Notes under the pieces: model-generated
Database searches by the model: none
Told to the model about the DNA's origin: nothing
Seen by the model: only the letters and a program-made list of their open reading frames with translations
Made by a program: the position numbers and the translations under genes
Shown: in pieces, positions 8,404-41,929 of the stretch
Layout: every line of letters begins with the position of its first letter
Numbering within the stretch: the stretch's first letter is position 1
Source: an uncultured Gammaproteobacteria bacterium
GTDB taxonomy: Bacteria > Patescibacteriota > Microgenomatia > UBA10105 > UBA927
NCBI GenBank assembly: GCA_964349125.1
Contig: CAYGFH010000001.1
Span: 644,801-708,800, forward strand
Direction: 5' to 3'
Length of the DNA: 64,000 nt

Positions 8404-8438
8404 CGCGATGACAATACTATTCATTATACATTGACGTG

Positions 8439-21784: not shown

Positions 21785-21820
21785 AGTTTAGCGTTTAGGG
21801 TACAGGGTTAAGTGTATGTG

Positions 21821-22999: not shown

Positions 23000-23027
23000 C
23001 GTTAATCGTTAATCGTTAATCGTTAAT
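23000..23027. repeat. 7-bp tandem repeat (CGTTAAT) x4 immediately 5' of the thiolase start codon
   Basis: CGTTAATCGTTAATCGTTAATCGTTAAT, directly adjacent to the start codon complement at 22997-22999. Confidence 0.8.
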
Positions 23028-23062
23028 CGCGATTTGCGGTTAACGGATAGCGGTTTACGGTA

Positions 23063-26260: not shown

Positions 26261-26808
26261 ATGGATATAAAAAGCTCCACAAATGCTTTGCGCGCGCGGA
26301 ACAGTTGTGACTCTGCGCCTTTCATGGATAAGGCGAATTTACTTGCGATGTCAGATACTGACAGATTTTCTACGTATTTTGATACGAGAAGTGATTTGTA
26401 ATGAGGCAACAGTTTACCAAATACCGTCTGTATTTTTTCCTTAAGTAGCACGATGTCCAGCTCCTCTTCCGGATTTTTCTGTGACGATATGAGCGTTTCT
26501 AAATTTGGCATCTGAGAAAATACCATTTGCTTTAATTTTTTGCGTCTGTAAAAATCGATGATTTTATTGTGGCAAATCGCATAGAGGAATGTGGTGATAC
26601 TGGAGTTTCCGTGAAAGTCCCGCAATGCTTCCAAAAAGGCAAATAACGTATCCTGCAGTATTTCTTCGCAATCCGCCGGGTTATTTACTTTTGTCCGAAT
26701 ATACGAGGTGAGTTTCGGCGTGTATCGCCTGTAAAATACCGCCAGTGCCTTCCGATCTCGAGCGAGTATTTGACGAATCAGGAGTGTATCATTAGCGTGA
26801 TCAATCAT
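26257..26808 (-). CDS. RNA polymerase sigma-70 factor, ECF subfamily
   Basis: 183 aa. Region 2 (LQDTLFAFLEALRDF, FLYAICHNKIIDFYRR) and region 4 HTH (LSVSDIASKFALSMKGAESQLFRARKAF). Confidence 0.75.
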   Translation of the reverse strand: MIDHANDTLLIRQILARDRKALAVFYRRYTPKLTSYIRTKVNNPADCEEILQDTLFAFLEALRDFHGNSSITTFLYAICHNKIIDFYRRKKLKQMVFSQMPNLETLISSQKNPEEELDIVLLKEKIQTVFGKLLPHYKSLLVSKYVENLSVSDIASKFALSMKGAESQLFRARKAFVELFISI

Positions 26809-26862
26809 AAGAATGTGGGAAAACTATACCACACACTCCATGGTTCCCACAAATTTATACAA

Positions 26863-26893
26863 ATTGACAGGACCGCACAAACTGCCATACACT
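26863..26893 (+). promoter_or_regulatory. candidate promoter for pilin array (-35 TTGACA at 26863-26868, -10-like TACACT at 26888-26893)
   Basis: TTGACA, a 19-nt spacer, then TACACT. ATG at 26903 implies a very short or leaderless 5'UTR. Confidence 0.3.
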
Positions 26894-26902
26894 ATTAGAT
26901 AT

Positions 26903-27226
26903 ATGGAGCGAGTCTATGCAGCTGTAGAAATCGGAAGTGAGTTCCCTTCATTAACACGCATAACAAGTCTTGGAGGGCTCTTGTCCGTCATCGTGCCAAA
27001 CGCCTTCATGCTGGCAGGGGTCATAGCCTTCCTTTTGTTAGTATTCGCCGGATTTGGTATGATACAGGCTGCGGGATCAGGTGATACAAAGCAAATGGAG
27101 TCAGGTAAAAAAGCGATTACAGGAGCTGTCATCGGCCTTCTCGTCATAATTGGATCGTTCTGGATTATTCAAATACTAGAGACATTAACAGGCATGAAGG
27201 GTCAAATCCTTCCGCCCATGAGATAA
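26903..27226 (+). CDS. VirB2/TrbC-like T4SS pilin paralog 3
   Basis: Start taken at MERVYAAV. Two TM helices flanking the loop IQAAGSGDTKQMESGKKAITGAVIGLLVII. Confidence 0.5.
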   Translation: MERVYAAVEIGSEFPSLTRITSLGGLLSVIVPNAFMLAGVIAFLLLVFAGFGMIQAAGSGDTKQMESGKKAITGAVIGLLVIIGSFWIIQILETLTGMKGQILPPMR

Positions 27227-27233
27227 TACAACT

Positions 27234-27596
27234 ATGTGGAAAGTATACGCAGATGACATTGTGGGTTCCGTGACAAACCCGCTCCCGGCACAGTATAAAA
27301 ATATAATCGGCGGAGGCACAGGTGGGGGACTTATCCTGTTTATGAGTAACATCTTGAGACTGGTGTTCGTCGTTGCCGGAATATTTGCATTTTTTAATTT
27401 CATCGTTGCAGGATTTCAGTACATGAATGCTGGCGGTGATGCTAAGTCGGTTTCGGCAGCGTGGGACAGAATTTGGCAATCGCTGATGGGATTGGTTATT
27501 ATCATTGGCTCTTTTGCGATGGCCGCACTTATGGGACAGGTATTTTTTGGCAATCCGAATGCAATATTAAGCCCGACGATATACGGTCCAAACTAA
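27234..27596 (+). CDS. VirB2/TrbC-like T4SS pilin paralog 4
   Basis: 120 aa. Gly-rich N-terminus, then TM1, loop MNAGGDAKSVSAAWDRIWQSLMGLVIII and TM2. Confidence 0.5.
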   Translation: MWKVYADDIVGSVTNPLPAQYKNIIGGGTGGGLILFMSNILRLVFVVAGIFAFFNFIVAGFQYMNAGGDAKSVSAAWDRIWQSLMGLVIIIGSFAMAALMGQVFFGNPNAILSPTIYGPN

Positions 27597-27597
27597 T

Positions 27598-27975
27598 ATG
27601 ACAAAAGTTCTTGCAGCATCACAACCACTCGGCACAATCGGAGGTGGAAGTTCAGGCGAACTCGGACCTTTTGCAGGGAAAAGTCTTAATAATCCACTTG
27701 ACGCCATAACTGGATACGTTAGTTCCATCGTGGGGATGCTTACGATTTTTGCGAGCATTTGGTTTTTATTTATGTTATTGTTCGCAGGGTATGAGTGGAT
27801 TAGTGCGGGCGGTGATGCCAAAAAAATCGCTTCTGCACGTGATCGCATCACACATGCGTTTGTGGGACTTGTCATTGTCATCGGATCTTGGAGTTTACTC
27901 GCCGTCACAGGACAGTTTTTTGGCTATGATACTTTATTGGGTTCAGGCGCAAATGAATATTTTAAATTAAAATAA
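27598..27975 (+). CDS. VirB2/TrbC-like T4SS pilin paralog 5
   Basis: 125 aa. Loop ISAGGDAKKIASARDRITHAFVGLVIVIG. Starts 2 nt after the previous stop. Confidence 0.5.
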   Translation: MTKVLAASQPLGTIGGGSSGELGPFAGKSLNNPLDAITGYVSSIVGMLTIFASIWFLFMLLFAGYEWISAGGDAKKIASARDRITHAFVGLVIVIGSWSLLAVTGQFFGYDTLLGSGANEYFKLK

Positions 27976-27979
27976 CACC

Positions 27980-28336
27980 ATGAATTCAAAAATCCTTGCA
28001 GCACTGAGCAATCCGGTATTACCCAACACCATCGGTGGTGGGGCAGGAGCAAATTATCAGCAGGGTGGGCGTGCGCTCGGGTCACTTATTAGCGGTCTTG
28101 TCGGAGCGCTGTTTATCGCAGGATTTCTTTTGGCATTCTTCTTCCTCATTACGGGCGGCATTACGTGGATCAGTGCAGGCGGAGATAAAGCAAAACTGGA
28201 AGCTGCACGGGATAGAATCACAAACTCTATCATAGGTATTATCATTGTGGGAGCATCATTTGCATTGACGGCTCTTGTTGCTGGATTCTTCGGATTTGAA
28301 CTGAATACCCTCCCAATACCCACGGTCGGACGGTAA
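27980..28336 (+). CDS. VirB2/TrbC-like T4SS pilin paralog 6
   Basis: 118 aa. Loop ISAGGDKAKLEAARDRITNSIIGIIIVGA. Confidence 0.5.
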   Translation: MNSKILAALSNPVLPNTIGGGAGANYQQGGRALGSLISGLVGALFIAGFLLAFFFLITGGITWISAGGDKAKLEAARDRITNSIIGIIIVGASFALTALVAGFFGFELNTLPIPTVGR

Positions 28337-28353
28337 GTTTCTCAAAGAAGACA

Positions 28354-28400
28354 TTGACATTGCGCGTTATTTTGCGCAACAATGAAAAATAGGATATAAT
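28354..28400 (+). promoter_or_regulatory. internal promoter with near-palindromic operator-like element upstream of pilin paralog 7
   Basis: -35 TTGCGC (28372-28377), 17-nt spacer, -10 TATAAT (28395-28400), and an upstream TTGACA (28354-28359). ATTGCGCG-ttatttt-GCGCAACAAT is an imperfect inverted repeat overlapping the -35. AGGAGG sits 9 nt before the ATG at 28426. Confidence 0.45.
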
Positions 28401-28425
28401 CAATGTATATAAATAGGAGGAACGT

Positions 28426-28755
28426 ATGAAAGTATTTGCAGCAGATCCACAAATCACCATTGGCCAACCATCAAATATTAAAATTGGAGATATCGGCCAA
28501 CTCATTAGTGCTCTTGTGGGAACGCTCCTTATTATCGCAGCACTGCTCGCTTTCTTCTTTCTGATTCTCGGTGGTATTCAGTGGATAACTTCCGGTGGTG
28601 ATAAAGCAGGCATGGAAGCCGCCAGAAACAAAATTACTCATGCGATTGTCGGACTTATCATTGTTGGAGCCGCATGGGCGGTTATGCTCCTCATCCAGAA
28701 CTTTTTGGGAGTCACGATCATTGGCGGCGCGGTAAATTTCCCAAAGCCATATTAA
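28426..28755 (+). CDS. VirB2/TrbC-like T4SS pilin paralog 7
   Basis: 109 aa. Loop ITSGGDKAGMEAARNKITHAIVGLIIVGA. Strong SD. Confidence 0.5.
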   Translation: MKVFAADPQITIGQPSNIKIGDIGQLISALVGTLLIIAALLAFFFLILGGIQWITSGGDKAGMEAARNKITHAIVGLIIVGAAWAVMLLIQNFLGVTIIGGAVNFPKPY

Positions 28756-28875
28756 CAGTGATTCTGGAATCTTGAATAAAGAATCATGGGGTTAGGGCAA
28801 ACGTGTATTGTTCGGTTTTCCATAATTCGTTATTCCTGATTCATTATTAACGCCCTCTCGTGCTACAATATACGT

Positions 28876-29259
28876 ATGAATTTCAAGCGATTTTCTGCAA
28901 ATATCGCGGTTATTGCCACGTCACTGCACCTTGCTCCATACGTTGTTGCTGAAGAACTTAGCACCTACAAAGACACAGATGTCGCTACTCTTAGTTCTCT
29001 CGAGGGATTGTTTAGTAACGCCGTAAGAACCGTGGTCTCTCTCTCCGCGGTAGGACTGTTCCTTATGTTCATCGCGGGCGGGTTTTCATTTTTATTCTCA
29101 GGCGGAGACCAAAAGAAGCTAGAGCAGGCTCGTGGCACCCTTACGAATGCAATTATTGGGCTTGTCGTCATATCATGCGCTTATCTGATCCTTCGAATCA
29201 TTGGAACATTTACGGGCACCTTGGATACCATTACCACATTTAAGATTTTTCAGGAGTAA
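28876..29259 (+). CDS. VirB2/TrbC-like T4SS pilin paralog 8
   Basis: 127 aa. Signal peptide, then loop FSGGDQKKLEQARGTLTNAIIGLVVIS. The upstream TGCTACAAT is -10-like. Confidence 0.5.
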   Translation: MNFKRFSANIAVIATSLHLAPYVVAEELSTYKDTDVATLSSLEGLFSNAVRTVVSLSAVGLFLMFIAGGFSFLFSGGDQKKLEQARGTLTNAIIGLVVISCAYLILRIIGTFTGTLDTITTFKIFQE

Positions 29260-29261
29260 CT

Positions 29262-30785
29262 ATGATTGACGTTCTTACATATATACACAATAATAGGAAG
29301 AGCATGATTCGTCTACTTTCCTCAACTCTACTTTTTATACTTTTTTTTGCAACTCTCCCTTCGGCAAATGTCTATGCGCAAAATCCTGCACCTGCACCCG
29401 TGCAGACATCGTCGTGGAAACAGTCCACACCCTTTTCATTTGGCAGCGCACTTGAAGGGACAGCGATGAATGCCCAATCAGCATGGCACACAGGGACACA
29501 GTACGTCATGTATTCGCTGACCTGTCTTATCACTGGAGCAGATTGTTCATACAAATTAGAGGATTTGCCTGCGAATATGTGTGGAAGCGCGTTGGGACAT
29601 ATAGATAAATCCATCGCAGCAACATTTGTAAATAGGCCTGCAGACACTGGACTGTGGCTCGCTGATACAGGAAGAACATTAGGGTTCCTCCCAAGGGAGG
29701 CAGTAGCGCAGGGTATAGGATTTTCAGGAATGCAACCGTTATTGCCTATTTGGAAAGCATTTCGAAATATTTCGTATATGTTGATGGCCGTTGTCATGAT
29801 CGCACTGGGATTTATGATCATGTTTCGCAAAAAAATAGATCCAAAAACGGTTGTCACTGCACAAAACGCAATTCCTAGAGTGGTGATAGCACTGATACTT
29901 ATCACATTTTCGTACGCTATCGTCGGTGTGCTTATCGATTTTATGTACGTCATCATCTACTTCTTAATTGCGCTGTTTAAGTCAACAGGGCTACTGGATA
30001 ATCCATCGTACCCTGTGTGTTTGGCGTACAAGACGCCTGAATTGCTCTATGGTCAGGGCGGCATGATGGCAAACTTCATGAATATCCCGAAGGATCCCTA
30101 TAGATTAATATTCGGCGCTACAGATAATTTTCTTGCAAACTCAGGCACCCTTTCAGGTATTGGGCTGGTGTTGGCCCTACTGGGAACTGCGGCATCAGTG
30201 CCTCCTGTCGCGACCGGAATTGCCGCTGGTGCGTTTATTGGGCTTCCGATTTTGCATCTTATTATTTCTATAATCATTATCTTTTTGTTCCTGCGATTGG
30301 CATTCTTTTTTCTGGGAGCCTATATACAAATTGTCATTTCACTGTTATTGGCACCGTTGCAGCTATTGTTTGAAGCGGTTCCTGGGAGCACGGCATTTTC
30401 CTCATGGATTTCAAATCTGATAGCGAATCTGGCGGTATTCCCTGTTGGCGCTGCGATGTTTATGCTGTCAAACGTATTTACCCATTTTGCAAATGTTAAT
30501 TCTGGCACTATCTGGGCTCCTCCGTACGCTCCAATATCCGGTAACGCATCGCAACTGTCTGCCATTATTGCTTTAGGTGTGTTGTTTGCCATACCGCAGA
30601 CTGCCGGCGCCATAAAAGAGGCGCTAAAGGCAAAGCCGGTTATGGGTGGTGGCAGTGGCAGTGGCGGCGGATTGCAAAATGCAGCGACGATACTGTCAAT
30701 GGCGTACTATGCACAGTCATTCACTCCACAAGGATTGAAGGATAGGATTTTCGGTGGGGGTGGAGACAAAAAAGGTGGGCATTAA
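29262..30785 (+). CDS. TrbL/VirB6-like polytopic T4SS membrane protein
   Basis: 507 aa. Signal peptide, ~130-aa extracytoplasmic N-terminal domain, at least 6 TM helices and a Gly-rich C-terminal tail. Sits directly after the pilin array (3-nt gap). Confidence 0.45.
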   Translation: MIDVLTYIHNNRKSMIRLLSSTLLFILFFATLPSANVYAQNPAPAPVQTSSWKQSTPFSFGSALEGTAMNAQSAWHTGTQYVMYSLTCLITGADCSYKLEDLPANMCGSALGHIDKSIAATFVNRPADTGLWLADTGRTLGFLPREAVAQGIGFSGMQPLLPIWKAFRNISYMLMAVVMIALGFMIMFRKKIDPKTVVTAQNAIPRVVIALILITFSYAIVGVLIDFMYVIIYFLIALFKSTGLLDNPSYPVCLAYKTPELLYGQGGMMANFMNIPKDPYRLIFGATDNFLANSGTLSGIGLVLALLGTAASVPPVATGIAAGAFIGLPILHLIISIIIIFLFLRLAFFFLGAYIQIVISLLLAPLQLLFEAVPGSTAFSSWISNLIANLAVFPVGAAMFMLSNVFTHFANVNSGTIWAPPYAPISGNASQLSAIIALGVLFAIPQTAGAIKEALKAKPVMGGGSGSGGGLQNAATILSMAYYAQSFTPQGLKDRIFGGGGDKKGGH

Positions 30786-30896
30786 CGTGTCTTTAAATAC
30801 CCAACTCATCGCCTTTTTTGGCTACATGGATAATTAAAATCCAGAAAAAAGATACGAGATATTGAAGATTATCTCAGATAGTCGCACGTGTGCATA

Positions 30897-33800
30897 TTAA
30901 TGGTGGGCACCACCACCACCACCACCACTGCCTTTACTTCCACCGCCCCCCTCATCATATCCTTCTTTTGCGGTTTTAGCTCCTAACCCAATGGAAATGC
31001 CAAGCCCAGCAAGTCCGGCAAGATAGTATGTATAAATCCTCCAAGGCGCATCGGTGTGATGATGTTTTCCGTCTATTCCTACATATTCCCATATTAATCC
31101 CATTTCTTTTTCCATGTATGTATTCATTCCTGGAGCTGTGGTTCCGAAGGCTTCTTTTAAATCCTTTTGAAGTTGTTCCCACATCCCATGGCGCTCATTT
31201 ATGGTGGTTGCCAAGTCGCCATGATCTCCAACGTTGCCAGTAACTCGCCTAATCGGAGAGTTTTTTAACTGATTAAACACCGATCCGTAAATCAACCAAT
31301 CATCCGCTCTGTCCATTGCGGTAATATTCATCCACGATCCACCAACTACCGCCACGCCTCGTGCCGCAAACTGTCCTCCATATGTAAATAGAATATTTTT
31401 CTTCAAATCAGGGAGAGCTTTCTGGAAAGGTTCAAATGAACGAACACCAAGTAAATCGACAACCATTGTTGCGCTTGCTTGTGCAGATCCATTATCGCCA
31501 GCCACACGAGCAATGCCACATTTCTCAGACTTACCTGATTCTTCTCCTATGTATCCCGACACTCGCTCAACGACATCTGCATTGGAGTGTTTCTTATTTA
31601 CACTATATTGCGAACCAGGAGCCTCCAAGGGATTGTCAAGAAATTTTTCTCTCGACTCAAGATCTTGAACATCAATGTATGTATCAACCATATCGGACAT
31701 AGTTAACCGCTTGAGTTGCGGTTCTTGTGTAACAAAGTTAGATAATTCTTTTTTTAATTTAATAAACTTATCTTTATTCACCCCCATATTTTTACACACA
31801 GTTGTTAGCACCCCATCTTGAATTTCGGTTGGGCCATGATGCCAGTTTATAGGGCCACCGCCAGTTTTTTCAAAAGATAATAGCTCGTCAGTGATACGGT
31901 CGGTGATTTTCATATACTGTATGGCTAGATCTGGTCTGTCTGCGCTTATAGTAGCAGCTTCTTTAGTTTTGATGTGTGAGAAAACTCCTTCAAAATATCC
32001 ACCATTGACCATCGCTTTATATTTTTCTATTGTTTCATAGTGATTGTGCTCAATAAGATCTTGAAAGCTTCTAGTGGTCAGGTATTCTCCCTGTACATGA
32101 AGCACTCCAGGCTGACCATGTTCACCATGCATAAGCTTATGGGCTATATGCTCGCGCTGGTGCGCTGATTCAGCACCAATAAACTCACCACCTAAAATGC
32201 GCTTATAATCGCCAACACCGATCCCCCTTGTCCAGGCATCTGCGCCGTATATAAGATCGTACATATCGATTTTAGGTTTACATACCCACGACGCACCCTC
32301 ATATCCGTACCCACCTATCACAAGGTCAGCATACTTCATACCCTCTTTGAAATTTATTACCTCCTCCAATTGATGGCGTGTGAGCGCTTCTATGGTTTTT
32401 GGTGGGTTTTTTACAGGATATCCTTTTAAATCATGACCAAAATGGAATCCTAACATCTGCTCAATACGCTCTTTTCGCTTTCCGGGATCCATTTCATATA
32501 CATCAAGTGCATCTGCGGCGATTCTTAACTTATATGATGGATCTTGCATTGCTTGATCCACCATTATTTTGGTTGCCTCTGTCACGCCTGTTATTTCTGC
32601 ATATTGATGAGCCATTACACGCATGTGAAGTTTGCTTGCAGGATCCATAAGATCCCAACGCTCAATAAGATGTTCATACATTTGCCTCGCCTGTAGATAT
32701 TGTGACAATCCAGATTCTCCGCCATACTTAGGGCCTTGAAAATTTTGACCGTCACTGGCGCCAGGGCTTAAGGCTTTTGTACGCGTATAGACCTCGCGAA
32801 GTGTGACCGTGTTAAGCTTTTGCGCTTCCAATACTACCCCTTTTATGACATCACTACTAAACTCCATTGTCTCATTTTGAATACCGATTTTTCGACAAAG
32901 TCCAGAATAATCATATTTACCATCAAGGGATTCCTTTATTGATGAGCGATTTTGGAAATGATTAGTAAAGTGTTCTCCAAATTCTTTTTTGTTTGCTTCC
33001 AGAACGTACTGCAAATCAAACCGCATACTATCCATTTCCTTATCACCGATTCGCTGTTTATGTCCACGCTCAAAATTTCGTTTATAAATATCGCCCAAGT
33101 CGTCTAATATGTGGTTTGCAGTTCCATTGATAAATCCTCCGTCAGCCTTGATGTCATAAATACCTCTATCCCCTAAAGCACCTAACACACTCACTTGTGT
33201 TTTTTTAATATCCATTCCCATCTTCATAACACCATAGGAGTAATCGATGTTGTCTTTTGCTTGAATGATACGGCTAATTTCTCGTAGTCTTTTGACACGA
33301 TCTTTAAAGAATGGGTGCTCCTTCATTTTAACCAGATCAGTTCTATAAACAGGTGTTCCATCAGGATTCGTCAGCGGCTTTTTATCTGGACCGAGAAAAC
33401 GCTCTGTTGTCACCTCAATAGGAGTTTTTGTTGCATCGGCGATTTCCTTTCGCCATTCAGGGTTTTCCATAAGCTCTTGAATGTCAGATTCATATTTAGA
33501 GCTTGCGTAATACTCAACGACTTGCTGTAGTTGTCGTTGAATTTGTTGCGGAACCGCGCCTCGAGTGTCAAACCCGACAGCTTCATTGTATTTACGATAC
33601 AGTTGGTTGAACCCCCATTCAGGGTATAATACCGTCAATTTTCGCACATCTGAGGCTAGAAACATGGAACTGTACTGATCCATAATACTTTCTCCACGCT
33701 CGGGTCTATTACGATATATTTCTTCTTGAAGCCTACGTGACTCTGTCTCTGCAGCATCAGCCATTGATTCAATCACATTCTGAGGATTACCCACTTTATT

Positions 33801-34994
33801 CAGTTGATCTGCGGTAAAACCGCTATGTACATCTTGCAAGTCATCAAGAACTTTTCGCAGTCTTCTAGGGTCTCCTTTAAATCCTGGGGTTGAATCCATC
33901 ATGTATTGTACTTTTTTGAGATACTCGTCTAGGTCGCGGTTTCCGCTTTTTTTGGTGGCATCCCACACTTCTGCGCCACTTTTCCCTCCGCCACCAAAGC
34001 CTGACGCTTTCATCATCTCCGTTTTGATCGACGGATCTCCAAGAATGTCAGACACTTCAATTACAAACTTGGTTTGTATCACTTTTTGCTGTGACGTCCG
34101 CCCTGGTCCACCAATTTCTTTTGCATATTGCTTTAGCGCATCTTGTAGAGGGGTGTTTTCAAGTACTTTTTTTGCTAAAAAGGTAGCTGCGTCGTCTGGG
34201 ATATTCATTAGTCTGATTTTTGTTTCTATACCAACGTCGCCTCCCGCCATAACTATCAATATATCGTTAAGACTTTCTTTTATGTCTTCGTGCACATCCT
34301 CTATTGTGTCTTCTTCATTTTTCGCTTTCTTTTTTCCTTCTGGCTTCTGTCTATTTTCCATGACTTTTTCTTCGAGAACCGACGCCATGCGTGTGCGCAA
34401 CATATCTGATGCGTCATAAATTTTTGAAGGAATACTTGCATTGACACCTTTAAGATAGGCGACGCGTTCGTGTATTTGTTTTGCAGCCTTTGCTATCTCA
34501 ATTTGCTCGGATAAGACCATTTCAGAACGCAAAGAATGTACCAACTGAGCTTCTTTTGCAACCAAATACACTGGATCATTTCTAAATGAGGATTCAGCTA
34601 TATCTGCAGCAACAACAGCGACTATATCGGACTTTGGGACGCCATTATCCAATAAGAATTTTACGTTCCTTCCCGTCTCGGGCGTTGCAAGAGACAACTT
34701 GGCGGCCTCTACTTTAACCGAAGTTGCGTTAATTGATGGGGCTGCCTTATTATCTATAACCGCATTAACGACCTCTGTGTGCCACTGTGCGGTTCCTTCT
34801 TTAGCGGTAATTACTGCTTTCGCTAATGGTTTCACCGACTCTTTCATCTTTATGCCGCCAGGTTGAGTTTTTTCCTGTATTGCTACTCTTGGTTTTTCAG
34901 GGCGACGAAGTCTCATGCCCTTTGCCATCATTCCTGCTTCAGCAAAAATTTTTAATGTCTCCATTAGGCCTTGCGCTTGATCTTCTTCTTTCAT
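30897..34994 (-). CDS. giant protein (1365 aa) of unknown function with C-terminal membrane anchor and Gly-rich tail
   Basis: Uninterrupted 4.1-kb ORF. No signal peptide and no recognisable catalytic motif by eye. Single C-terminal TM (YYLAGLAGLGISIGLGA) followed by GGGGSKGSGGGGGGAHH. Confidence 0.5.
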   Translation of the reverse strand: MKEEDQAQGLMETLKIFAEAGMMAKGMRLRRPEKPRVAIQEKTQPGGIKMKESVKPLAKAVITAKEGTAQWHTEVVNAVIDNKAAPSINATSVKVEAAKLSLATPETGRNVKFLLDNGVPKSDIVAVVAADIAESSFRNDPVYLVAKEAQLVHSLRSEMVLSEQIEIAKAAKQIHERVAYLKGVNASIPSKIYDASDMLRTRMASVLEEKVMENRQKPEGKKKAKNEEDTIEDVHEDIKESLNDILIVMAGGDVGIETKIRLMNIPDDAATFLAKKVLENTPLQDALKQYAKEIGGPGRTSQQKVIQTKFVIEVSDILGDPSIKTEMMKASGFGGGGKSGAEVWDATKKSGNRDLDEYLKKVQYMMDSTPGFKGDPRRLRKVLDDLQDVHSGFTADQLNKVGNPQNVIESMADAAETESRRLQEEIYRNRPERGESIMDQYSSMFLASDVRKLTVLYPEWGFNQLYRKYNEAVGFDTRGAVPQQIQRQLQQVVEYYASSKYESDIQELMENPEWRKEIADATKTPIEVTTERFLGPDKKPLTNPDGTPVYRTDLVKMKEHPFFKDRVKRLREISRIIQAKDNIDYSYGVMKMGMDIKKTQVSVLGALGDRGIYDIKADGGFINGTANHILDDLGDIYKRNFERGHKQRIGDKEMDSMRFDLQYVLEANKKEFGEHFTNHFQNRSSIKESLDGKYDYSGLCRKIGIQNETMEFSSDVIKGVVLEAQKLNTVTLREVYTRTKALSPGASDGQNFQGPKYGGESGLSQYLQARQMYEHLIERWDLMDPASKLHMRVMAHQYAEITGVTEATKIMVDQAMQDPSYKLRIAADALDVYEMDPGKRKERIEQMLGFHFGHDLKGYPVKNPPKTIEALTRHQLEEVINFKEGMKYADLVIGGYGYEGASWVCKPKIDMYDLIYGADAWTRGIGVGDYKRILGGEFIGAESAHQREHIAHKLMHGEHGQPGVLHVQGEYLTTRSFQDLIEHNHYETIEKYKAMVNGGYFEGVFSHIKTKEAATISADRPDLAIQYMKITDRITDELLSFEKTGGGPINWHHGPTEIQDGVLTTVCKNMGVNKDKFIKLKKELSNFVTQEPQLKRLTMSDMVDTYIDVQDLESREKFLDNPLEAPGSQYSVNKKHSNADVVERVSGYIGEESGKSEKCGIARVAGDNGSAQASATMVVDLLGVRSFEPFQKALPDLKKNILFTYGGQFAARGVAVVGGSWMNITAMDRADDWLIYGSVFNQLKNSPIRRVTGNVGDHGDLATTINERHGMWEQLQKDLKEAFGTTAPGMNTYMEKEMGLIWEYVGIDGKHHHTDAPWRIYTYYLAGLAGLGISIGLGAKTAKEGYDEGGGGSKGSGGGGGGAHH

Positions 34995-35041
34995 AGATAT
35001 TTATATTGTATCGTGAGGCTATAGAGACTTCAAGCTACAGG

Positions 35042-35596
35042 TTACTGATACAAGCTGTGGGCTTGTATGTACAGCGATATGTGCTGGGGCACCAGTTGAC
35101 TAATGGGCAATCCTCTTTTCACCCTCTCCCGAATTTTTGTGGAAGAGATATTGCTCCCCACAAGCAATTCATCGGAGATAACATGCATGTTTGGATACAA
35201 TGGCTCATTTGGATATCCATACCGTGGAAATACCAGAAAAGGTAGCTCTTGTAATAGCTGCTGCCACTCCTGCCATAAATGCAGTGTTGGCAGTTGATCA
35301 GAGCCGATGATAAATGAGTAGGTGTGTTCTTTGGGCAAAAAAGGAAGGATGTGAACGGTTTCTCCGTCCAGTTGATTATCTATTTCGATAGTAGAGACCT
35401 GAGTTCTTGGAAGTTCTATAAGTCGGGTCATAGCAAGTCTATCTTCTACAGAAGCAACGGGTTTGGGAGGGCTTTGATGGAAGTTTGGCAAAAACCATAC
35501 TTCATCAGTCTCGGTAAAATCCAGCACCTGCTGGGCAATCATCAAGTGCCCGATGTGAGGGGGGTTAAATGCGCCACCGAGAAGTGCTATCTTCAT
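35042..35596 (-). CDS. nadD: nicotinate-nucleotide adenylyltransferase
   Basis: 184 aa. ALLGGAFNPPHIGHL (the H.GH nucleotidyltransferase motif) and a C-terminal ISST.IR motif. Confidence 0.8.
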   Translation of the reverse strand: MKIALLGGAFNPPHIGHLMIAQQVLDFTETDEVWFLPNFHQSPPKPVASVEDRLAMTRLIELPRTQVSTIEIDNQLDGETVHILPFLPKEHTYSFIIGSDQLPTLHLWQEWQQLLQELPFLVFPRYGYPNEPLYPNMHVISDELLVGSNISSTKIRERVKRGLPISQLVPQHISLYIQAHSLYQ

Positions 35597-37785
35597 GGTT
35601 GTTTCAGTATTCGTTTGGTATATCGCTCTCTCGATGAACGAATCACTTTTTCCCTATTTTGGTTACGAGACTTTGGAAGAGGCAGGGTTTTAGCAGAGAA
35701 CGGCTGGCTCGTATGATTGTCTATGGATAATTTCATTATCATCTCATAATTCCCCAACGCTACCAACTCACTCTCCGCGTATTTGTCACCAAATTCGCGC
35801 ACCAGGCTTCGGGCGTCTGCGGCGCCGACGCTGAAAGACATAATTGAACCCGCATTACCAAAAATTGCTTTTTGGACATCCTCATCGATTTGTCCTATGT
35901 ACTGGTTAGCAAGCGTTAGATCAAGCCGATATTTTCGTGCTTCCGATAAAATTTTAATAAACGATGTTGTTGCGAAATTCTGAAACTCGTCGACATAGAG
36001 ATAAAAGTCTCTGCGTTCAGTTTCTGCTAAGTACACGCGGTTCATGGCTGCAAGCTGAAATTTAGTGATTATCATAGCCCCCAATAAGGCGCTGCTATCC
36101 TCTCCTAGTTTTCCTTGCGACAGATTTACCAGCACAATTTTACCCTGATTCATGACATCTTCAAGATCTACTGTGGATGCACTGCTTCCCACGATATTTC
36201 TTATAGTCTGAGACGATAAGAATTGTCCCACCTTGTTGAGAATTGGAGACACGGCTTCCGAACGCATTTGTGGACTCATTTTGCCAAACTCGTTTACCCA
36301 GAAATTCTTGAGCACCTGATCGTTCATCTTTTCCACCACTTTAGCTCTATATGTTTCGTTGGTTAACAGCTCCGGGACCTGCAAGAGCGTACTACCCGGG
36401 ACGTTTGTGAGGGTGAGGATTGTGTTACGAAGGATATATTCAAGTCTGGGCCCCCAGCTTAAATGATAGAGTTTATAGAAAATAGAGACTATGCCCGAAG
36501 ATACAAGCTCTTTGTACGCGGGGTTTCTAATTTCAAGCGGATTCAAATGAAAAGGGTATTCTAAGTCTGATGGATCCAAATACACCACATCATTGATTCT
36601 ATGTGAGGGAACATAATCTAGCAAAATATCACAGAGATCACCATGCGGATCAACCACTGCGACGCCTTCGCCATTTTTCATATCATTGATAGCCATATTG
36701 GCAATCATTGTGGATTTTCCTGTTCCTGTTTTTCCAATTATGTACATATGTTTTCGCCTATCATCTTTTTTCACGCCGAACGTACACAGCTTGTTTTTGT
36801 ATTCGGTTCGACCAAAAAAGTTAATTTGTTTCTTCTCCTCTTCATTTTCCGTTGCAATTGGCAGATTTTCCGGTGCCTCCCCCGTTAATTGCGATCCCCA
36901 TGAGATATTTTTAATCATAGAAAGCGTGAGCCCTGGCGGGTGCCATAATGATGCAAGCTCAGAGGCGTTTAGTATTTGGTTTCTTGGCAGTAGATCTCCA
37001 CTCCTCGTAATCATCGCTTTTTCTAGGCGTTTTTTGTTCCAGAATGCGGGTTCTGTGAGCTGTAAGGAATTTCCTCCACCCAATGTATAGACGCCAAACG
37101 TCCCACCCAAAGAGTGAAGCAATTCTGTCGCACGATGCTCGCTGGCCGCTACGGTAGCAATTCTGACTGCTGCCGTAAATCCAACCTGTGCGATTTTTGT
37201 TTCTATGAGCCTTGCGTGTGGATGAGCTTTCATCCGACCGGGAGTCGGAGAGCTCACATCGGGAATTCCACGGGCTACCACTGCCGCTGCGGTATGCTGC
37301 CAACCGTGCCCGGCAGGAGAAATCCAGACCTGTACAGCCGCCGCTTCCCCTACCGGCAATTTCGCCATCTGTCCCAAAACGCTTGCAAGAACATCCAGCT
37401 CTTTTACCTCTTTATATGTTTTGAGCGGGTAATAAAATGAGTTCGATAGCGTCAGGTGAGCGGCGGCATGTGGAAGAGTAAAAAAATGCGGAGCATAATC
37501 AGCAGACTGAGAAAGCAGCACTTTCGGGTACTGCGCCGTGATCTGACTTTCAACATAGGATTGGGAGAGCGATGGCATGCCAATAAAAAAATGCAGCCGC
37601 GAGTTCACGGATACTAATTCAAGGCTATAAAACTTTGGCGCATGTCGAGGCCCAAAAAGCTTGGCGAAAAATCCCCCATGCCCTCCTGTTGCACCAAGCG
37701 CGGCGTACACCTGTTCCATTGCGGCTGGTGTTTCCTCACTTTCTCTGGAATTTTTCACCTCCAGCAGTACAAACGAAGACTCCAT
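35593..37785 (-). CDS. VirD4/TraG-like type IV coupling-protein ATPase with atypical soluble N-terminal domain
   Basis: 730 aa. Walker A YIIGKTGTGKST, VVDPHGD, Walker B LYVDEFQNF and a TLANQYIGQID motif in the C-terminal ~400 aa. The N-terminal ~330 aa have no TM helices and no recognised motif. Confidence 0.6.
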   Translation of the reverse strand: MESSFVLLEVKNSRESEETPAAMEQVYAALGATGGHGGFFAKLFGPRHAPKFYSLELVSVNSRLHFFIGMPSLSQSYVESQITAQYPKVLLSQSADYAPHFFTLPHAAAHLTLSNSFYYPLKTYKEVKELDVLASVLGQMAKLPVGEAAAVQVWISPAGHGWQHTAAAVVARGIPDVSSPTPGRMKAHPHARLIETKIAQVGFTAAVRIATVAASEHRATELLHSLGGTFGVYTLGGGNSLQLTEPAFWNKKRLEKAMITRSGDLLPRNQILNASELASLWHPPGLTLSMIKNISWGSQLTGEAPENLPIATENEEEKKQINFFGRTEYKNKLCTFGVKKDDRRKHMYIIGKTGTGKSTMIANMAINDMKNGEGVAVVDPHGDLCDILLDYVPSHRINDVVYLDPSDLEYPFHLNPLEIRNPAYKELVSSGIVSIFYKLYHLSWGPRLEYILRNTILTLTNVPGSTLLQVPELLTNETYRAKVVEKMNDQVLKNFWVNEFGKMSPQMRSEAVSPILNKVGQFLSSQTIRNIVGSSASTVDLEDVMNQGKIVLVNLSQGKLGEDSSALLGAMIITKFQLAAMNRVYLAETERRDFYLYVDEFQNFATTSFIKILSEARKYRLDLTLANQYIGQIDEDVQKAIFGNAGSIMSFSVGAADARSLVREFGDKYAESELVALGNYEMIMKLSIDNHTSQPFSAKTLPLPKSRNQNREKVIRSSRERYTKRILKQP

Positions 37786-37953: not shown

Positions 37954-39324
37954 ATGGATCAGCATCCTGTCCCACAAAATGTCACCACATTTCAGTTCCG
38001 GCTTATCGGAGACATGACCATTAAGCAATTCGGGCACCTCGCGGGCGGCGCCATCCTTGCCTACATTTCGTACAAACTCCCGCTGCCGTTCTTTTTTTCT
38101 TGGCCACTTACCATTATCTTTGCTCTCGGCGGCATTGGATTTGCGTTTGTTCCCATCGAAGAACGACCGATGGACGTTTGGGTGCTGTCTTTTTTGAAAA
38201 ATGTATATAGTCCAACTATATACGTGTGGGAGAGGTCGCCAAGCGTAATCACACCTGTGGTTTCACGGGTACAACCAGTGCACCCTAGTGCCCCTGTTAT
38301 CGCACCGCGTCAACAGCCATCGCCCCCCGCAGTCAGACCTCCGTTGCCGCAGGGGCAAATGGCAGCGCAAGTGCACCCGACCCAACCTGTTGCACAGAAA
38401 TCAGCTGCAAGCGTTGTAAATACCATGTATGCCGCGAAACTCGCCACAGGACAACAGTACACCTCACAGGGACAATTGCCTCAACAGCAAGCGCCTGGAA
38501 TGTTTGACTGGCTATCATCACTCTTTTGGCCAAAGACACGGATACAGATCCCTCAGCCCACACCCCAACAGGCCCCTCATATGGCAACACCTTCTGTGGT
38601 GGGTAATCATCTTGATATGTCCACTCCCCCGGCTGTTGCAAAACAGCCTATCAACACGCCTCCACGAGATTCTGAAGAGAAAAAAGAAAAACTGGATGAA
38701 AAACTCTCTGTACTTAAGCACGAACTGGAAGACCACTCCATTTCTCAGGCGCGAATTTTGGAACTTCAAAAGCAACTAACGGAAGTGCTGATGCAAAAAG
38801 ATATAATGGCCGCCGAAATGCAGGCCATGCAAAAACAACTAAACACGGTGGCTGCTCCCCAATCAGCTTTGCCAGTACGGCCAACGATCCCCTCGGCACA
38901 ACAACAACAGGTACCCCAGCCCACGCCACAACAGAAGCAACCGACAGTAAAGATTATTACGCCCGAAGGGGCCGTACGAGCGGGGCTTCCACGACTGACG
39001 ACATTCCCCAACGTGGTAACAGGCATTACAAAGGACAGCGATAACAATCTTCTTCCTGGTGTGCTTGTTACTGTAAAGGATAAGGATGGAGTCCCTGTGC
39101 GCGCTCTCAAAACAAACAGGCTTGGTCAGTTTGCCGCATCGACTCCGCTATCAAATGGTGTGTACTTTGTAGAGATAGAGGATCCAAGACAACGATATAC
39201 CTTTGACCGGGTGCAAATAACACTCAACGGGTCCATTGTCCCGGCATTGGAAATTATTACAAAGAGTCAAAAGCAGATATCACGGGATAAACTGGCAAAA
39301 GAATTATTTGGAAACACAGCATAA
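37954..39324 (+). CDS. PrgI/VirB3-like membrane protein with long Pro/Gln-rich linker, coiled coil and C-terminal beta domain
   Basis: 456 aa. The N-terminus FQFRLIGDMTIKQFGHLAGGAILAYISYKLPLPFFFSWPLTIIFALGGIGFAFVPIEERPMDVWVLSFL resembles the PrgI/VirB3 family (two TM). This is followed by ~200 aa of P/Q-rich low complexity, a coiled coil, and a C-terminal region with a carboxypeptidase-regulatory-like beta pattern (LPGVLVTVKDKDGVPV). Confidence 0.4.
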   Translation: MDQHPVPQNVTTFQFRLIGDMTIKQFGHLAGGAILAYISYKLPLPFFFSWPLTIIFALGGIGFAFVPIEERPMDVWVLSFLKNVYSPTIYVWERSPSVITPVVSRVQPVHPSAPVIAPRQQPSPPAVRPPLPQGQMAAQVHPTQPVAQKSAASVVNTMYAAKLATGQQYTSQGQLPQQQAPGMFDWLSSLFWPKTRIQIPQPTPQQAPHMATPSVVGNHLDMSTPPAVAKQPINTPPRDSEEKKEKLDEKLSVLKHELEDHSISQARILELQKQLTEVLMQKDIMAAEMQAMQKQLNTVAAPQSALPVRPTIPSAQQQQVPQPTPQQKQPTVKIITPEGAVRAGLPRLTTFPNVVTGITKDSDNNLLPGVLVTVKDKDGVPVRALKTNRLGQFAASTPLSNGVYFVEIEDPRQRYTFDRVQITLNGSIVPALEIITKSQKQISRDKLAKELFGNTA

Positions 39325-39325
39325 T

Positions 39326-39985
39326 ATGACAGACGCAATCGTCCCTATCAAATCCACCACACAGGTTTTCACAGAGGTGGAAGCCATCGAACAAAATATT
39401 CTTATTTTTGTCGACGGTTCATGCTCGTTGGTTATTTCTGCATCAGCTGTTAATTTTGGTCTGTTGTCTGAGCGTGAACAAGACGCAATTATATCATCAT
39501 ATGCCGGACTGCTAAACTCTCTGTCTTTTCCGATTGAATTACTTATTCGCACACAGCACAAAGATGTTACTGCATACTTGCATCTGTTGGAAGACCAGGA
39601 GAGAAAACAGACAAATCCAAAACTCGCAAAAAGCATTCATGATTATCGAATTTTTGTGGCTGCAACGGTAAAAGAAAAGGATGTTTTGGATAAAAAGTTT
39701 TATATTGTTGTCCCTTTTTCGAGTCTTGAGCTCGGAGCATCGCCCAGCGTGTTTTTTGGTACCAAAAAGCGGGGCTTGCCATATAAAAAGCAATATATTA
39801 TCGAAAAGGCGCTTTCGGCCCTCAATCCAAAGCGGGATCACGTTATTCGATTGCTAAACAAACTTGGCCTTCATGCGCATCAGCTTACTAATGAGCAATT
39901 AGTAAAACTCCTCTTTACTACGTATAACGCCGGTGTGCCCACTCCTGATGACGAAACAATACATAAGGCACTTCACTCAACATAG
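39326..39985 (+). CDS. VirB4 N-terminal-domain-like protein (probable 5' portion of a split virB4)
   Basis: 219 aa. IFVDGSCSLVISASAVNFGLLSEREQDAIISSYAGLLNSLSFPIELLIRTQ resembles the CagE/TrbE/VirB4 N-terminal family block. It ends at a TAG that is in-frame with the downstream VirB4 ATPase ORF (6-nt gap). Confidence 0.45.
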   Translation: MTDAIVPIKSTTQVFTEVEAIEQNILIFVDGSCSLVISASAVNFGLLSEREQDAIISSYAGLLNSLSFPIELLIRTQHKDVTAYLHLLEDQERKQTNPKLAKSIHDYRIFVAATVKEKDVLDKKFYIVVPFSSLELGASPSVFFGTKKRGLPYKKQYIIEKALSALNPKRDHVIRLLNKLGLHAHQLTNEQLVKLLFTTYNAGVPTPDDETIHKALHST

Positions 39986-39991
39986 AACAAT

Positions 39992-41926
39992 ATGACATCT
40001 TTTTTTCAAAAAATTCTTGGTCAACAGATACCCACACAGGTAAGTGCGCCGGTCGTGCATTCAACTGATCCGATTAGCGTTTGTGATCTCGTTGCCCCTC
40101 CTTCCATCGAAGTGGATTTTGATATGCTAAAAATTGGAGGATATTACTATAGAACATTATTTATTGCAGGGTACCCTCGTTTTGTCAGCGCAAACTGGCT
40201 TGAGCCGCTTATTTCATTCAACCACACACTGGATATTTCCATGTATATATATCCCACAAGAAGCGAAGAGGTGCTTGAAAATCTCAAGCGTAAGGTTGGT
40301 GAAATGGAAGCAACCATACAGTCGGATATGAAAAGAGGCCGAGTTATTGAACCATCAATTCAAGTGGCATTAGAAGACGCGCTGGCGCTTCAACAGGAGC
40401 TCGCTAAGGGCGCTCAGCGATTCTTTCAATTTGGATTGTATGTCACCATACCGGCAAGAGACATAGAAGACTTAAATAAAGCGAGCAAACAAGTTGAGGC
40501 AACGCTATCATCACTGCTCATTGTGACAAAACGGGCAACTTTGCAAATGGATGAGGGTTTTAAGACTACCCTTCCCATGGGTCAGGATAGAATTGTTGTG
40601 ACAAGAAACATGGACACAACATCACTCGCCACCACATTTCCGTTTACCACATCTGAACTCACCGCAAATGAAGGAATTCTCTACGGCATCAATCAACACA
40701 ATGACAGTCTTGTTATTTTTGACCGCTTTACATTGGAGAACGCCAATACAGTGGTGTTCGGAAAGTCAGGCGCCGGAAAATCGTTTTTAGTGAAGCTCGA
40801 GATTCTTCGAAGTCTTATGTTTGATACTGAGGTAATTGTCATTGATCCTGAAAATGAATATGAAACACTCACACATGCGCTGGGTGGCGAGTATATCCGG
40901 TTTCATTTTGGAGCAACCACAAAAGTGAATCCTTTTGACTTAGCACTCTTGCATCAGAAGGGCGCGATACAGGAAGATAGTGAGCTAAATCAAAAAATTT
41001 TATCGCTTCATGGGTTTTTCCGTGTTGTCATGGGCAAACTAAACGCTATGGAAGACGCGCTGCTTGATCGGGCGTTAATCCTGACATATAAAATGAAGGG
41101 AATTACGCCTGACCCGGAAACACAGTCAAAAGAACCACCGCTCATGGAGGATTTATATAAAACGCTGGTTGGCATGGAAGACACTGTAGCGAGAGGTTTA
41201 GCTGATCGTATCGAAAAATTTGTAAAGGGAAGTTTGGTTGGTATATTTGACCATCAAACTAATTTTGAAATCAGAAATCAATTAACCGTATTTTCAATTC
41301 GAGATCTTGAAGATGAACTGAGACCAATAGCTATGTATCTCATTCTGGATTTTATCTGGACAAAGGTGCGCAGAAATATCAAAAGACGCATTTTGATAGT
41401 TGATGAGGCATGGTATATGATGAAGTATCCTGACTCTGCCGCTTTTTTAAACTCTATTGCTAAGAGAGCCAGAAAATATTATCTCGGACTGACAACTATC
41501 ACGCAGGACGTTGAGGATTTCATGTCCGTTGATCTTGGAAAAACAATTATTCAAAACAGCTCGCTGCAGATTTTACTCAAACAATCAACGGCAGCGATAG
41601 ACAGAATTGCAGACGTGTTTTTTCTCTCTGAAGGCGAGCGCCACTTTTTACTGTCTGCAGGTGTTGGAGAAGGACTTTTCTTCGCGGGAAGCGCGCATGC
41701 CGCAATTAGAGTGATCGCATCTCCTCAGGAAACTGCACTTATCACGACAAAACCGCAGGATCTTCAGGCAAAAGCAGACGCCGCGACGTCTCCCCCTGTT
41801 ACCAAGCCAGCGGCTATGTCAGTCGAGGTTATCTCTCCCGCTCAACCTGTACAAACGGATGTTCACCCGCTTGGAACAGCAAATCGACCTATATTCACCA
41901 CAGAATCTCTGCCAGAAAAACCATAA
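39992..41926 (+). CDS. virB4: VirB4/TrbE-family type IV secretion ATPase (ATPase portion)
   Basis: 644 aa. Walker A VVFGKSGAGKSF, VIVIDPENEY and Walker B ILIVDEAWYMM, plus the upstream GGYYYRTLFIAGYPRFV...LDISMYIYP block typical of VirB4. About 180 aa shorter at the N-terminus than typical VirB4. Confidence 0.8.
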   Translation: MTSFFQKILGQQIPTQVSAPVVHSTDPISVCDLVAPPSIEVDFDMLKIGGYYYRTLFIAGYPRFVSANWLEPLISFNHTLDISMYIYPTRSEEVLENLKRKVGEMEATIQSDMKRGRVIEPSIQVALEDALALQQELAKGAQRFFQFGLYVTIPARDIEDLNKASKQVEATLSSLLIVTKRATLQMDEGFKTTLPMGQDRIVVTRNMDTTSLATTFPFTTSELTANEGILYGINQHNDSLVIFDRFTLENANTVVFGKSGAGKSFLVKLEILRSLMFDTEVIVIDPENEYETLTHALGGEYIRFHFGATTKVNPFDLALLHQKGAIQEDSELNQKILSLHGFFRVVMGKLNAMEDALLDRALILTYKMKGITPDPETQSKEPPLMEDLYKTLVGMEDTVARGLADRIEKFVKGSLVGIFDHQTNFEIRNQLTVFSIRDLEDELRPIAMYLILDFIWTKVRRNIKRRILIVDEAWYMMKYPDSAAFLNSIAKRARKYYLGLTTITQDVEDFMSVDLGKTIIQNSSLQILLKQSTAAIDRIADVFFLSEGERHFLLSAGVGEGLFFAGSAHAAIRVIASPQETALITTKPQDLQAKADAATSPPVTKPAAMSVEVISPAQPVQTDVHPLGTANRPIFTTESLPEKP

Positions 41927-41929
41927 ACC

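Follow-up and report, generated by a model that had tools for sequence, protein, structure and literature searches.

Within a stretch of 64,000 nucleotides from an uncultured bacterium (assembly GCA_964349125.1, contig CAYGFH010000001.1), referred to here as the window and in whose positions all coordinates are given, a type IV secretion system (T4SS) locus was found to contain a gene encoding a 1365-amino-acid orphan protein, which we named BIG. With a probability that we put at roughly 0.4, BIG may be a lineage-specific, tail-anchored cytoplasmic platform, serving as a structural subunit of the inner-membrane complex of a Patescibacteria-type (probably Microgenomatia) T4SS. We infer that BIG is part of the T4SS machine and contacts its VirB6-like and VirD4-like proteins. 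The original prediction, made by a model from the nucleotide letters, had proposed that such a protein could be an effector, an adhesin or a scaffold. Of these, a scaffold fits best, because BIG occurs as a single copy in synteny with VirB6, has no conserved catalytic residues and has a compact predicted helical fold; an effector is possible but less likely, and an adhesin is unlikely for reasons of topology given below.

The BIG gene spans 30897..34994 on the minus strand (stop codon included), starts with ATG and encodes, without interruption, a protein whose C-terminus reads ...GAKTAKEGYDEGGGGSKGSGGGGGGAHH (also written ...IYTYYLAGLAGLGISIGLGAKTAKEGYDEGGGGSKGSGGGGGGAHH, the last letters being HH), as expected from the 4.1-kb open reading frame (ORF) from which this work started. 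The gene is real and intact, since a 1365-codon open frame is far beyond chance (about e^-75 by our own arithmetic, given that a random codon at 44% GC is a stop in about 5-6% of cases) and full-length homologues exist. Three relatives, at 65, 58 and 36% identity, were the only ones returned by a word-indexed search. BIG is the largest gene of the T4SS locus and was the sole match to the family hidden Markov model (HMM) in the window, where no paralogue was found.

No recognisable domain was detected, as first reported. Pfam yielded only sub-threshold noise for BIG and no family above threshold for 30 members of its family, scans with NCBIfam, PHROGs and PADLOC yielded nothing, and a PDB sequence search gave no match to either the single protein or a 30-sequence family profile. 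Sub-threshold matches to GerPC, HTH_Tnp_1, DUF1217 and BREX PglX were discarded as noise, each being confined to one member and lying far under the cutoff.

The structure of BIG was modelled with AlphaFold2 (AF2) in two parts. The model of residues 430-1365 (m63297047aba8), built from a 32-sequence alignment and with a mean predicted local distance difference test score (pLDDT) of 87.3 and a predicted template modelling score (pTM) of 0.87, was compact, with about 45 helices, few short hairpins and almost no beta strands, and ended in a 32-residue helix (1316-1347) followed by a disordered tail. The model of residues 1-450 (m0d7688b9f1cf; pLDDT 82, pTM 0.52) was composed of several flexibly joined helical subdomains, located after a disordered lysine/proline-rich linker. 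The predicted fold is almost entirely alpha-helical and does not agree with the mixed secondary structure initially described. In Foldseek searches, neither the C-terminal model (against PDB and BFVD) nor the N-terminal model (against PDB) gave a match at E 1e-3 or better, with template modelling scores of about 0.1. A check for internal repeats was negative, and BIG displayed neither the tandem repeats of about 35-45 residues nor the solenoid fold match that characterise alpha-solenoid repeat proteins (ARM, HEAT, TPR). Remote-homology searches, structure prediction and structural search, all suggested at the outset, therefore gave a confident helical model without profile or Foldseek match. 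The BIG family is thus unannotated, with a confidently predicted helical fold for which no match was detectable in PDB or BFVD, and it is not mentioned in the surveys of Patescibacterial T4SSs that were consulted (among them PMC12102498, PMC10633639 and PMC12857230).

Several more specific identities were considered and rejected. A relaxase (MOB) did not agree with the absence of a profile match, the lack of an invariant His or Tyr among the 30 sequences and the all-helical fold; a P-loop T4SS ATPase (VirB4, VirD4 or VirB11) did not agree with the absence of an AAA or P-loop Pfam match and the near absence of beta strands. BIG was also excluded from the VirB6/TrbL family, having one hydrophobic segment rather than at least five, no Pfam match (TrbL/VirB6 or PrgH) and an hhalign probability of 1.4% against an alignment of the local VirB6-like protein. 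Profile comparison likewise rejected homology to the M23 protein, the PrgI fusion, the VirB6-like protein and the VirD4 of the locus. Homology to TssL/DotU (IcmH) was rejected in the absence of Pfam or NCBIfam matches and of a Foldseek match in PDB. No homology to a characterised enzyme family unrelated to secretion emerged, and the absence of Walker, nuclease or relaxase motifs, first judged by eye, agrees with the profile searches and with the conservation pattern described below.

To describe the membrane topology of BIG and its relatives, we used hydropathy (Kyte-Doolittle, 19-residue mean). No N-terminal signal sequence was found in BIG, and no N-terminal segment reached 1.6 in the 30 members. 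Outside the C-terminus, the best value in BIG was 1.17. The sole candidate membrane segment, residues 1320-1338, was weak (1.31); an equivalent single C-terminal segment was present in 29 of the 30 relatives, with hydropathy ranging from 1.1 to 2.2, and the segment falls in the terminal helix of the AF2 model. Both the missing signal peptide and the single C-terminal hydrophobic helix of the original prediction were thereby upheld. The helix (residues 1320-1339, IYTYYLAGLAGLGISIGLGA; 30978..31037, minus strand), delimited by hydropathy, flanking charges and AF2 helix 1316-1347, is followed by a tail (residues 1340-1365, KTAKEGYDEGGGGSKGSGGGGGGAHH; 30900..30977, minus strand) that was modelled with a pLDDT below 50. 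The segment is followed by 27 residues in BIG and by 6-32 residues across members. In the family, the flank preceding the helix was basic, often with the pattern YR.R, and mostly net positive, and the flank following it was neutral or acidic. With no signal peptide and one terminal helix, this layout has the signature of a tail-anchored membrane protein, a term that denotes a class and not a homology family. Because the charged flanks fit the positive-inside rule and no signal peptide is present, about 1320 residues of BIG are predicted to be cytoplasmic, with only 6-32 residues outside; it is on these two grounds, the missing signal peptide and the predicted cytoplasmic bulk, that an adhesin was rejected.

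The distribution of the family was determined by an exhaustive HMMER search against 1.84 billion representatives, using a family profile of BIG residues 125-1320. This search identified 34 clusters of relatives, 31 of them with E 1e-10 or better. Full-length members were 1044-1427 amino acids long, with identity to the BIG of the window as low as 16-20%. A scan of 185,579 GTDB species genomes gave one BIG locus, identical to locus L001, and a scan of JGI metagenomes gave one 1.2-kb fragment. The sole GTDB species genome with a BIG homologue, L003 (CAYSEV010000015.1, GCA_964430295.1), is titled "uncultured Gammaproteobacteria bacterium"; this title is probably wrong, because a Patescibacteria-type T4SS and the mevalonate synteny are present there. 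No homologue was found in plasmid and phage collections, on which basis a mobile-element origin was rejected. The comparison of presence and length proposed at the outset thus yielded a rare family with a narrow distribution, variable mainly in its N-terminal 440 residues and confined to genomes with the T4SS layout observed here.

Conservation was judged on the panel of 30 family sequences. Besides Met1, only G611, G885, R1163, D1167 and G1206 were invariant. Near-invariant residues (G644, P744, W780, P865, L876, Y896, W903, P973, L1039, P1048, C1067, R1115, S1146, G1154) were mostly G, P, W, Y and L. Most of the conserved polar residues were located in the last 250 residues ahead of the anchor, with a cluster at 1115-1267 (R1115, S1146, R1163, D1167, D1228, D1232, S1246, R1250, E1267). 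No invariant His, Tyr, Lys or Glu was observed, nor the conserved constellation of these residues that is typical of hydrolases, nucleases, relaxases and NTPases; BIG is thus unlikely to be an enzyme. Such a profile speaks for a protein that binds or scaffolds, and its functional surface would lie near the membrane. The conserved part extends over residues 440-1340, and the all-helical core defined from the AF2 model and the conservation profile corresponds to residues 441-1319 (31038..33674, minus strand). The first 440 residues (33675..34994, minus strand), which comprise an amphipathic helix, the disordered linker and helical subdomains, were variable and indel-rich, with low column occupancy and conservation; residues 201-280 occurred in less than 26% of members. 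The exception was a patch at residues 81-160 (34515..34754, minus strand; alignments A1 and A3; pLDDT 93-98) with the pattern ...FLL.nG.vP.S..VA.V.ADIA.S....DP.YL.AKEAQL...

The placement of BIG inside a T4SS-like locus was fully supported by the surrounding genes: six pilins, a VirB6-like protein, a VirD4-like protein, a PrgI/VirB3 fusion, a TrsD-like protein, VirB4 and an M23-peptidase protein, with dnaN and dnaA adjoining the locus. No relaxase was found in the locus by Pfam and NCBIfam annotation. This layout agrees with that described for Patescibacteria, in which a monoderm, MPF_FATA-like T4SS with pilin arrays and no relaxase is located near dnaA (Quinonero-Coronel et al., PMC12102498). 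Two neighbours of BIG are of particular relevance. On one side, a 507-amino-acid VirB6-like polytopic membrane protein (29262..30785, plus strand), recognised by its position and hydropathy, converges on BIG across a 111-bp gap. It has a cleavable-looking signal peptide, about 6-7 hydrophobic segments, a 137-residue external domain and a C-terminus ending in GGH, and had no Pfam or NCBIfam match. On the other side, a 730-amino-acid VirD4-like coupling ATPase (35593..37785, minus strand; Pfam DUF87, TrwB_AAD_bind, TraG-D_C) and a nadD-like nucleotidyltransferase (35042..35596, minus strand; Pfam CTP_transf_like, E 1.9e-21) form with BIG a same-strand string, virD4 being first: the virD4 stop and nadD start overlap by 4 nt, and nadD ends 47 bp before the BIG start. 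The NAD-biosynthesis gene is thus embedded in a T4SS string, to which relatives add nadE.

Synteny was compared in eleven loci with readable flanks, from close to very distant relatives (L001, L002, L004/L005, L006, L007/L008, L009, L010, L013, L014, L015). In all eleven, BIG and the VirB6-like gene converged tail-to-tail across small gaps, with the pilin array next in order; L014 showed a 4-nt overlap of the pair, and the arrangement was kept even at 17-26% BIG identity. Upstream of BIG, the usual order was virD4-nadD(-nadE)-BIG, and this side was interrupted in several genomes by PaaX-like, helix-turn-helix or hypothetical genes (a PaaX-like gene was inserted in L002 and L009). The BIG-VirB6 junction was the sole junction never broken. 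Always next to the VirB6-like gene and the pilins, and without plasmid or phage homologue, BIG has the phyletic distribution of a T4SS component. It may still be that BIG is unrelated to secretion, as a membrane-tethered cytoplasmic protein involved in envelope organisation, division or membrane shaping and kept in place by a frozen gene order. We regard this as doubtful. The presence in the same string of nadD, and in some relatives nadE, without a T4SS role speaks for it, as do the collinearity of the whole 25-kb neighbourhood in all relatives and the lack of any sequence or fold link between BIG and a T4SS component; the unbroken BIG-VirB6 junction beside a repeatedly interrupted upstream side, the restriction of the family to genomes with this T4SS layout, and the shared, co-varying tails and apparent exchange of BIG and VirB6 as one block (see below) speak against it.

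If BIG is a T4SS platform, its helix would be inserted in the membrane of the producer cell itself, and about 1300 residues of helical, non-enzymatic protein would lie beneath the channel in the cytoplasm. The anchor helix and the conserved membrane-proximal region (about 1110-1320) would associate with the VirB6-like channel/pilus-assembly protein, and the large cytoplasmic body would lie beside the VirB4 ATPase as a platform for docking or coupling. Partners or substrates would be bound by the adaptable part of BIG, its variable N-terminal 440 residues. Most plausibly, BIG would tether the co-transcribed VirD4-like ATPase, which here seems to have lost its N-terminal membrane anchor. In canonical VirD4, TrwB and PcfC, transmembrane helices at the N-terminus keep the protein at the channel. 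In the VirD4-like protein of the window no transmembrane segment was found (maximum hydropathy 1.15), and its relatives carry an N-terminal DUF8128 according to precomputed Pfam annotation. A soluble VirD4-like protein would need a membrane receptor, for which BIG, being co-oriented and tail-anchored, is the obvious candidate.

In each of the 21 genome pairs compared, no protein of the region diverged more than BIG. For instance, identity with L001 was 94% for VirD4, 97% for pilin 5, 88% for nadD and 74% for the VirB6-like protein, versus 40% for BIG; with L007, it was 84% for both VirB4 and VirD4, versus 24% for BIG. The median ratio of -ln(identity), BIG over the other protein, was 5.8 for VirB4, 4.7 for VirD4, 2.2-3 for most genes and 1.7 for the VirB6-like protein. 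The M23 protein evolved about as fast as BIG (24-30% identity where VirB4 showed 75-84%). Synonymous sites were saturated for BIG in every available pair, so that no dN/dS ratio was obtainable; the dN of 0.32 against a saturated dS implies net purifying selection. When the window was compared with L002, its closest pair, the proportion of synonymous differences (pS) was 0.44-0.66 for pilins 1-5, the sigma factor, Yip1, HMGR and HMGS, versus 0.75-0.83 for the sixth pilin, the VirB6-like gene, BIG and nadD, giving a mosaic over 26813-35596. The contrast was visible at similar protein identity (nadD, 85% and pS 0.83; HMGR, 83% and pS 0.63). Because pS is higher in the pilin 6-VirB6-BIG-nadD block than in the flanking genes from the pilins to HMGS, the block with BIG and VirB6 may have a deeper history and have been recombinationally exchanged as a unit.

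Fast evolution is expected of a host-facing factor, and BIG might accordingly be a dedicated protein substrate or translocator of the T4SS, passed via the pilus and inserting its helix in the host membrane. The VirD4-like protein would recognise BIG, extracting it from the donor membrane or taking it before insertion, and the body would manipulate the host or open a conduit for nutrients or RNA. BIG is encoded next to the coupling protein, a place that in conjugative systems is taken by the relaxase, their protein substrate (PMC12102498), and no relaxase is present in its locus. The substrates of Patescibacterial T4SSs are not known, though the system is essential in Saccharibacteria (PMC10633639), and a cultivated Microgenomatia parasite has host-reaching tubular structures that are possibly T4SS pili (bioRxiv 10.64898/2026.06.21.733656). 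In the clade of the window the helix is just moderately hydrophobic (1.1-1.7), which is typical of T4SS transmembrane effectors; strongly hydrophobic effectors are also secretable, by a two-step route via an inner-membrane intermediate (PMC12981334). Nevertheless, the strict single copy and fixed position of BIG are unlike effector repertoires, and the helices of several members are strongly hydrophobic (above 2.0) and would insert in the producer. Moreover, the predicted N-in/C-out topology would hide the C-terminus from the coupling protein, known T4SS signals being C-terminal and cytoplasmic (PMC12981334). Transport would require the compact 900-residue domain (pTM 0.87) to unfold, and selection on BIG appears purifying overall. 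We therefore consider a substrate unlikely. A more specific form makes BIG the missing cargo or translocator, which would travel through the VirB2-like pilus, lodge by its C-terminal helix in the host membrane and there form or organise a conduit supplying these parasites, severely limited in biosynthesis, with nucleotides, RNA or lipids. This seems more improbable still; under it, the fast evolution of BIG would track host range.

The C-terminal tail peptide of BIG (GGGGSKGSGGGGGGAHH) was disordered in the AF2 model (pLDDT <50). Six of its terminal glycines are encoded by a perfect (GGT)6 run (30909-30926, minus strand), which would be prone to in-frame slippage and could vary tail length. 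At least six glycines followed the helix in 14 of the 30 members and a His was present within the last few residues in about 21, and one clade of shorter proteins (1044-1180 amino acids) ended in K/E-rich tails. The poly-Gly tail originally noted in BIG is therefore present, but it is clade-specific and not family-wide. The proposal that it acts as a sorting or processing signal was not supported: it matches no known C-terminal sorting signal, and NCBIfam, which holds sorting-domain models, gave no match in BIG. Signals of the LPXTG/sortase, PEP-CTERM and GlyGly-CTERM types were rejected, as no member has a Sec signal peptide, the pre-helix sequence (...GKHHHTDAPWR) has no LPXTG, PEP or GG motif, and the 27-residue tail is Gly-rich and net negative rather than short and basic. 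The tail may matter in a different way, because a (Gly)n-His ending co-occurs on the VirB6-like protein across the eleven loci: the two endings were jointly present in seven and jointly absent in four. In L009 and L010, the VirB6-like protein retained only the terminal His of this tail. Among the 57 genes of the window, Gly-rich C-termini were found only in BIG, in a seventh pilin encoded apart from the array and in the VirB6-like protein (...FGGGGDKKGGH).

These tails also bear on the possibility that BIG and the VirB6-like protein form a fast-diversifying specificity or exclusion module that chooses partner cells, either kin or host, in the manner of TraG/TraS or ConG/YddJ. The short Gly/His tails on the outside would lie exposed close to the cell wall, where they might be ligands of the locus M23 (Gly-Gly type) peptidase, or its substrates. 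Lysostaphin-type M23 enzymes cut oligoglycine, and VirB6-family proteins are known targets of exclusion systems. The two proteins are the fastest-evolving membrane proteins of the locus besides the M23 protein, their mosaic divergence suggests that they move together, their tails co-vary, and the system itself includes an M23 peptidase gene. However, the predicted 6-32 external residues are too few for recognition, the tails are nondescript in one clade, these genomes show no sign of conjugation (no relaxase), and the link to M23 is pure conjecture. Such a module appears very improbable.

Several observations weigh against the platform that we favour. Gene order is shared by these genomes throughout the 25-kb region, mevalonate genes included, so that the adjacency of BIG and VirB6 is only moderate evidence of function; moreover, the two genes are convergent and not co-transcribed. 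The co-variation of the tails splits along two clades and represents approximately one evolutionary event. In addition, a K-rich flank may place the VirB6-like tail in the cytoplasm, on the side opposite to that predicted for the BIG tail, which would undercut a shared tail role. Finally, a divergence about 4.7 times that of VirD4 and 5.8 times that of VirB4 is unexpected for a tight ATPase partner and is more typical of host-facing proteins.

The remaining genes of the T4SS locus were assigned by Pfam and NCBIfam unless stated otherwise. Six VirB2-like T4SS_pilin genes (26813..29259, plus strand) all matched Pfam PF18895; four reached the curated cutoff, and two were near it (27234-27596 and, marginally, 26813-27226/27598-27975). 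An ECF-like sigma factor is encoded at 26257-26808 (minus strand). The isolated seventh T4SS_pilin gene (16519-17001, plus strand; PF18895, E 5.5e-6), 10 kb off the array, encodes a Gly-rich tail (PGFGGTPGASGGR). Beyond virD4, a divergent T4SS operon occupies 37954..44242 on the plus strand (to 45216 with a 349-residue protein). It comprises the PrgI/VirB3 fusion (37954-39324), a TrsD/TraC-like protein (about 39326-39985), VirB4 (39992-41926) and the 770-residue M23-peptidase protein (41930-44242). For the TrsD/TraC-like gene, the mechanical TTG start (ORF 39236-39985) overlaps the preceding gene, and the ATG at 39326 gives 219 residues, relatives having 215-220. The M23 protein has a 450-residue N-terminal region without signal peptide, with hydrophobic segments at 453-471 and 523-541 before the peptidase domain. 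The 349-residue single-pass protein, taken from the ORF list (44167-45216), has a mechanical TTG start that overlaps the M23 gene and probably starts later, at MLIRNAMKKF...

Outside the T4SS genes, a complete CPR (Candidate Phyla Radiation)/archaeal-type mevalonate cluster (cluster type: PMC6107057) was found at 18081-25275 (minus strand). It contains a thiolase, a small OB/DUF35-like protein (21476-21784), HMGS, HMGR and three GHMP-kinase-family genes, including diphosphomevalonate decarboxylase; one gene of this family (19058-20542) is fused to a NUDIX domain, possibly an IDI type 1. Together, this complete CPR/archaeal-type cluster, the pilin arrays with an HMM-invisible VirB6 and the proximity of dnaA point to the Microgenomates group as the probable source of the window. 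We also observed a tRNA-Ser with anticodon ACU (8679-8764, plus strand), near a normal tRNA-Ser(GCU) (8438-8527, minus strand). It has the loop UUACUAA, a clean cloverleaf and a long variable arm, and scored 54 bits with Rfam; A34 is unusual in bacteria outside tRNA-Arg(ACG).

Patescibacteria are ultrasmall parasitic bacteria that presumably use their T4SS on their hosts. It is the only machine for which a requirement in the epibiotic growth of a cultivated Patescibacterium has been demonstrated (PMC10633639), and the Patescibacterial systems have no relaxase, their cargo and cytoplasmic organisation not being known (PMC12102498, PMC12857230). BIG, not described before, is an obvious candidate for either role in such a system, docking platform or cargo, because it is the largest gene, with a conserved position, an unmatched confident fold and a tie to an anchor-less coupling ATPase. 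What appears new here is a T4SS with an unprecedented, putative giant tail-anchored component, BIG. As platform or as cargo, BIG would extend the known T4SS parts of monoderm bacteria by a new one, and a cargo or translocator would be of very high interest. Whatever its role, BIG defines a new protein family whose large helical architecture is predicted with confidence.

BIG belongs to none of the known systems compared here by sequence or fold. Other secretion machines have tail-anchored cytoplasmic subunits, such as TssL in the type VI and DotU/IcmH in the type IVB secretion system. Like BIG, these lack a signal peptide and combine a helical domain in the cytoplasm with one membrane helix at the C-terminus, and they are proven integral parts of the inner-membrane complex, a position that for BIG we infer; they are only about 200-260 amino acids long, versus 1365, with no sequence similarity and no PDB fold match. 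The transmembrane effectors of T4SSs in Legionella, Coxiella and Rickettsia are large helical proteins that have one or two helices of moderate hydrophobicity, require the coupling ATPase and often evolve fast (PMC12981334). These effectors are mostly N-in/C-in with a cytoplasmic C-terminal signal, are variable in occurrence and copy number and have no fixed place by virB6, whereas in BIG the helix lies at the very C-terminal end and only a short tail, predicted to be external, comes after it.

The essential T4SS cluster of Southlakia epibionticum encodes two VirB6-like/T4SS proteins of about 1000 amino acids with large helical (ARM-like) hydrophilic domains (PMC10633639 supplement). These extended VirB6 proteins (SEML1_0011 and SEML1_0013), like Rickettsia RvhB6 and F-plasmid TraG, combine a VirB6 membrane domain with a large, often helical hydrophilic domain, whose role is unknown (PMC12857230). 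The Saccharibacterial proteins, which are essential, are encoded at the corresponding place, with prgI/virB4 on one side and the pilin array on the other; BIG is likened to them by description and position. Extended VirB6 proteins carry their hydrophilic part in one chain with a membrane domain of at least five helices, whereas BIG is a separate gene product with one terminal helix, beside a short VirB6-like protein. In the coupling complex of Legionella (DotL-DotM-DotN-IcmSW-LvgA), which has no sequence or fold relation to BIG and consists of many small subunits on a DotL that keeps its own membrane anchor, the adaptors are cytoplasmic and largely helical, sit on the coupling ATPase and diversify substrate recognition, which is the role proposed here for BIG.

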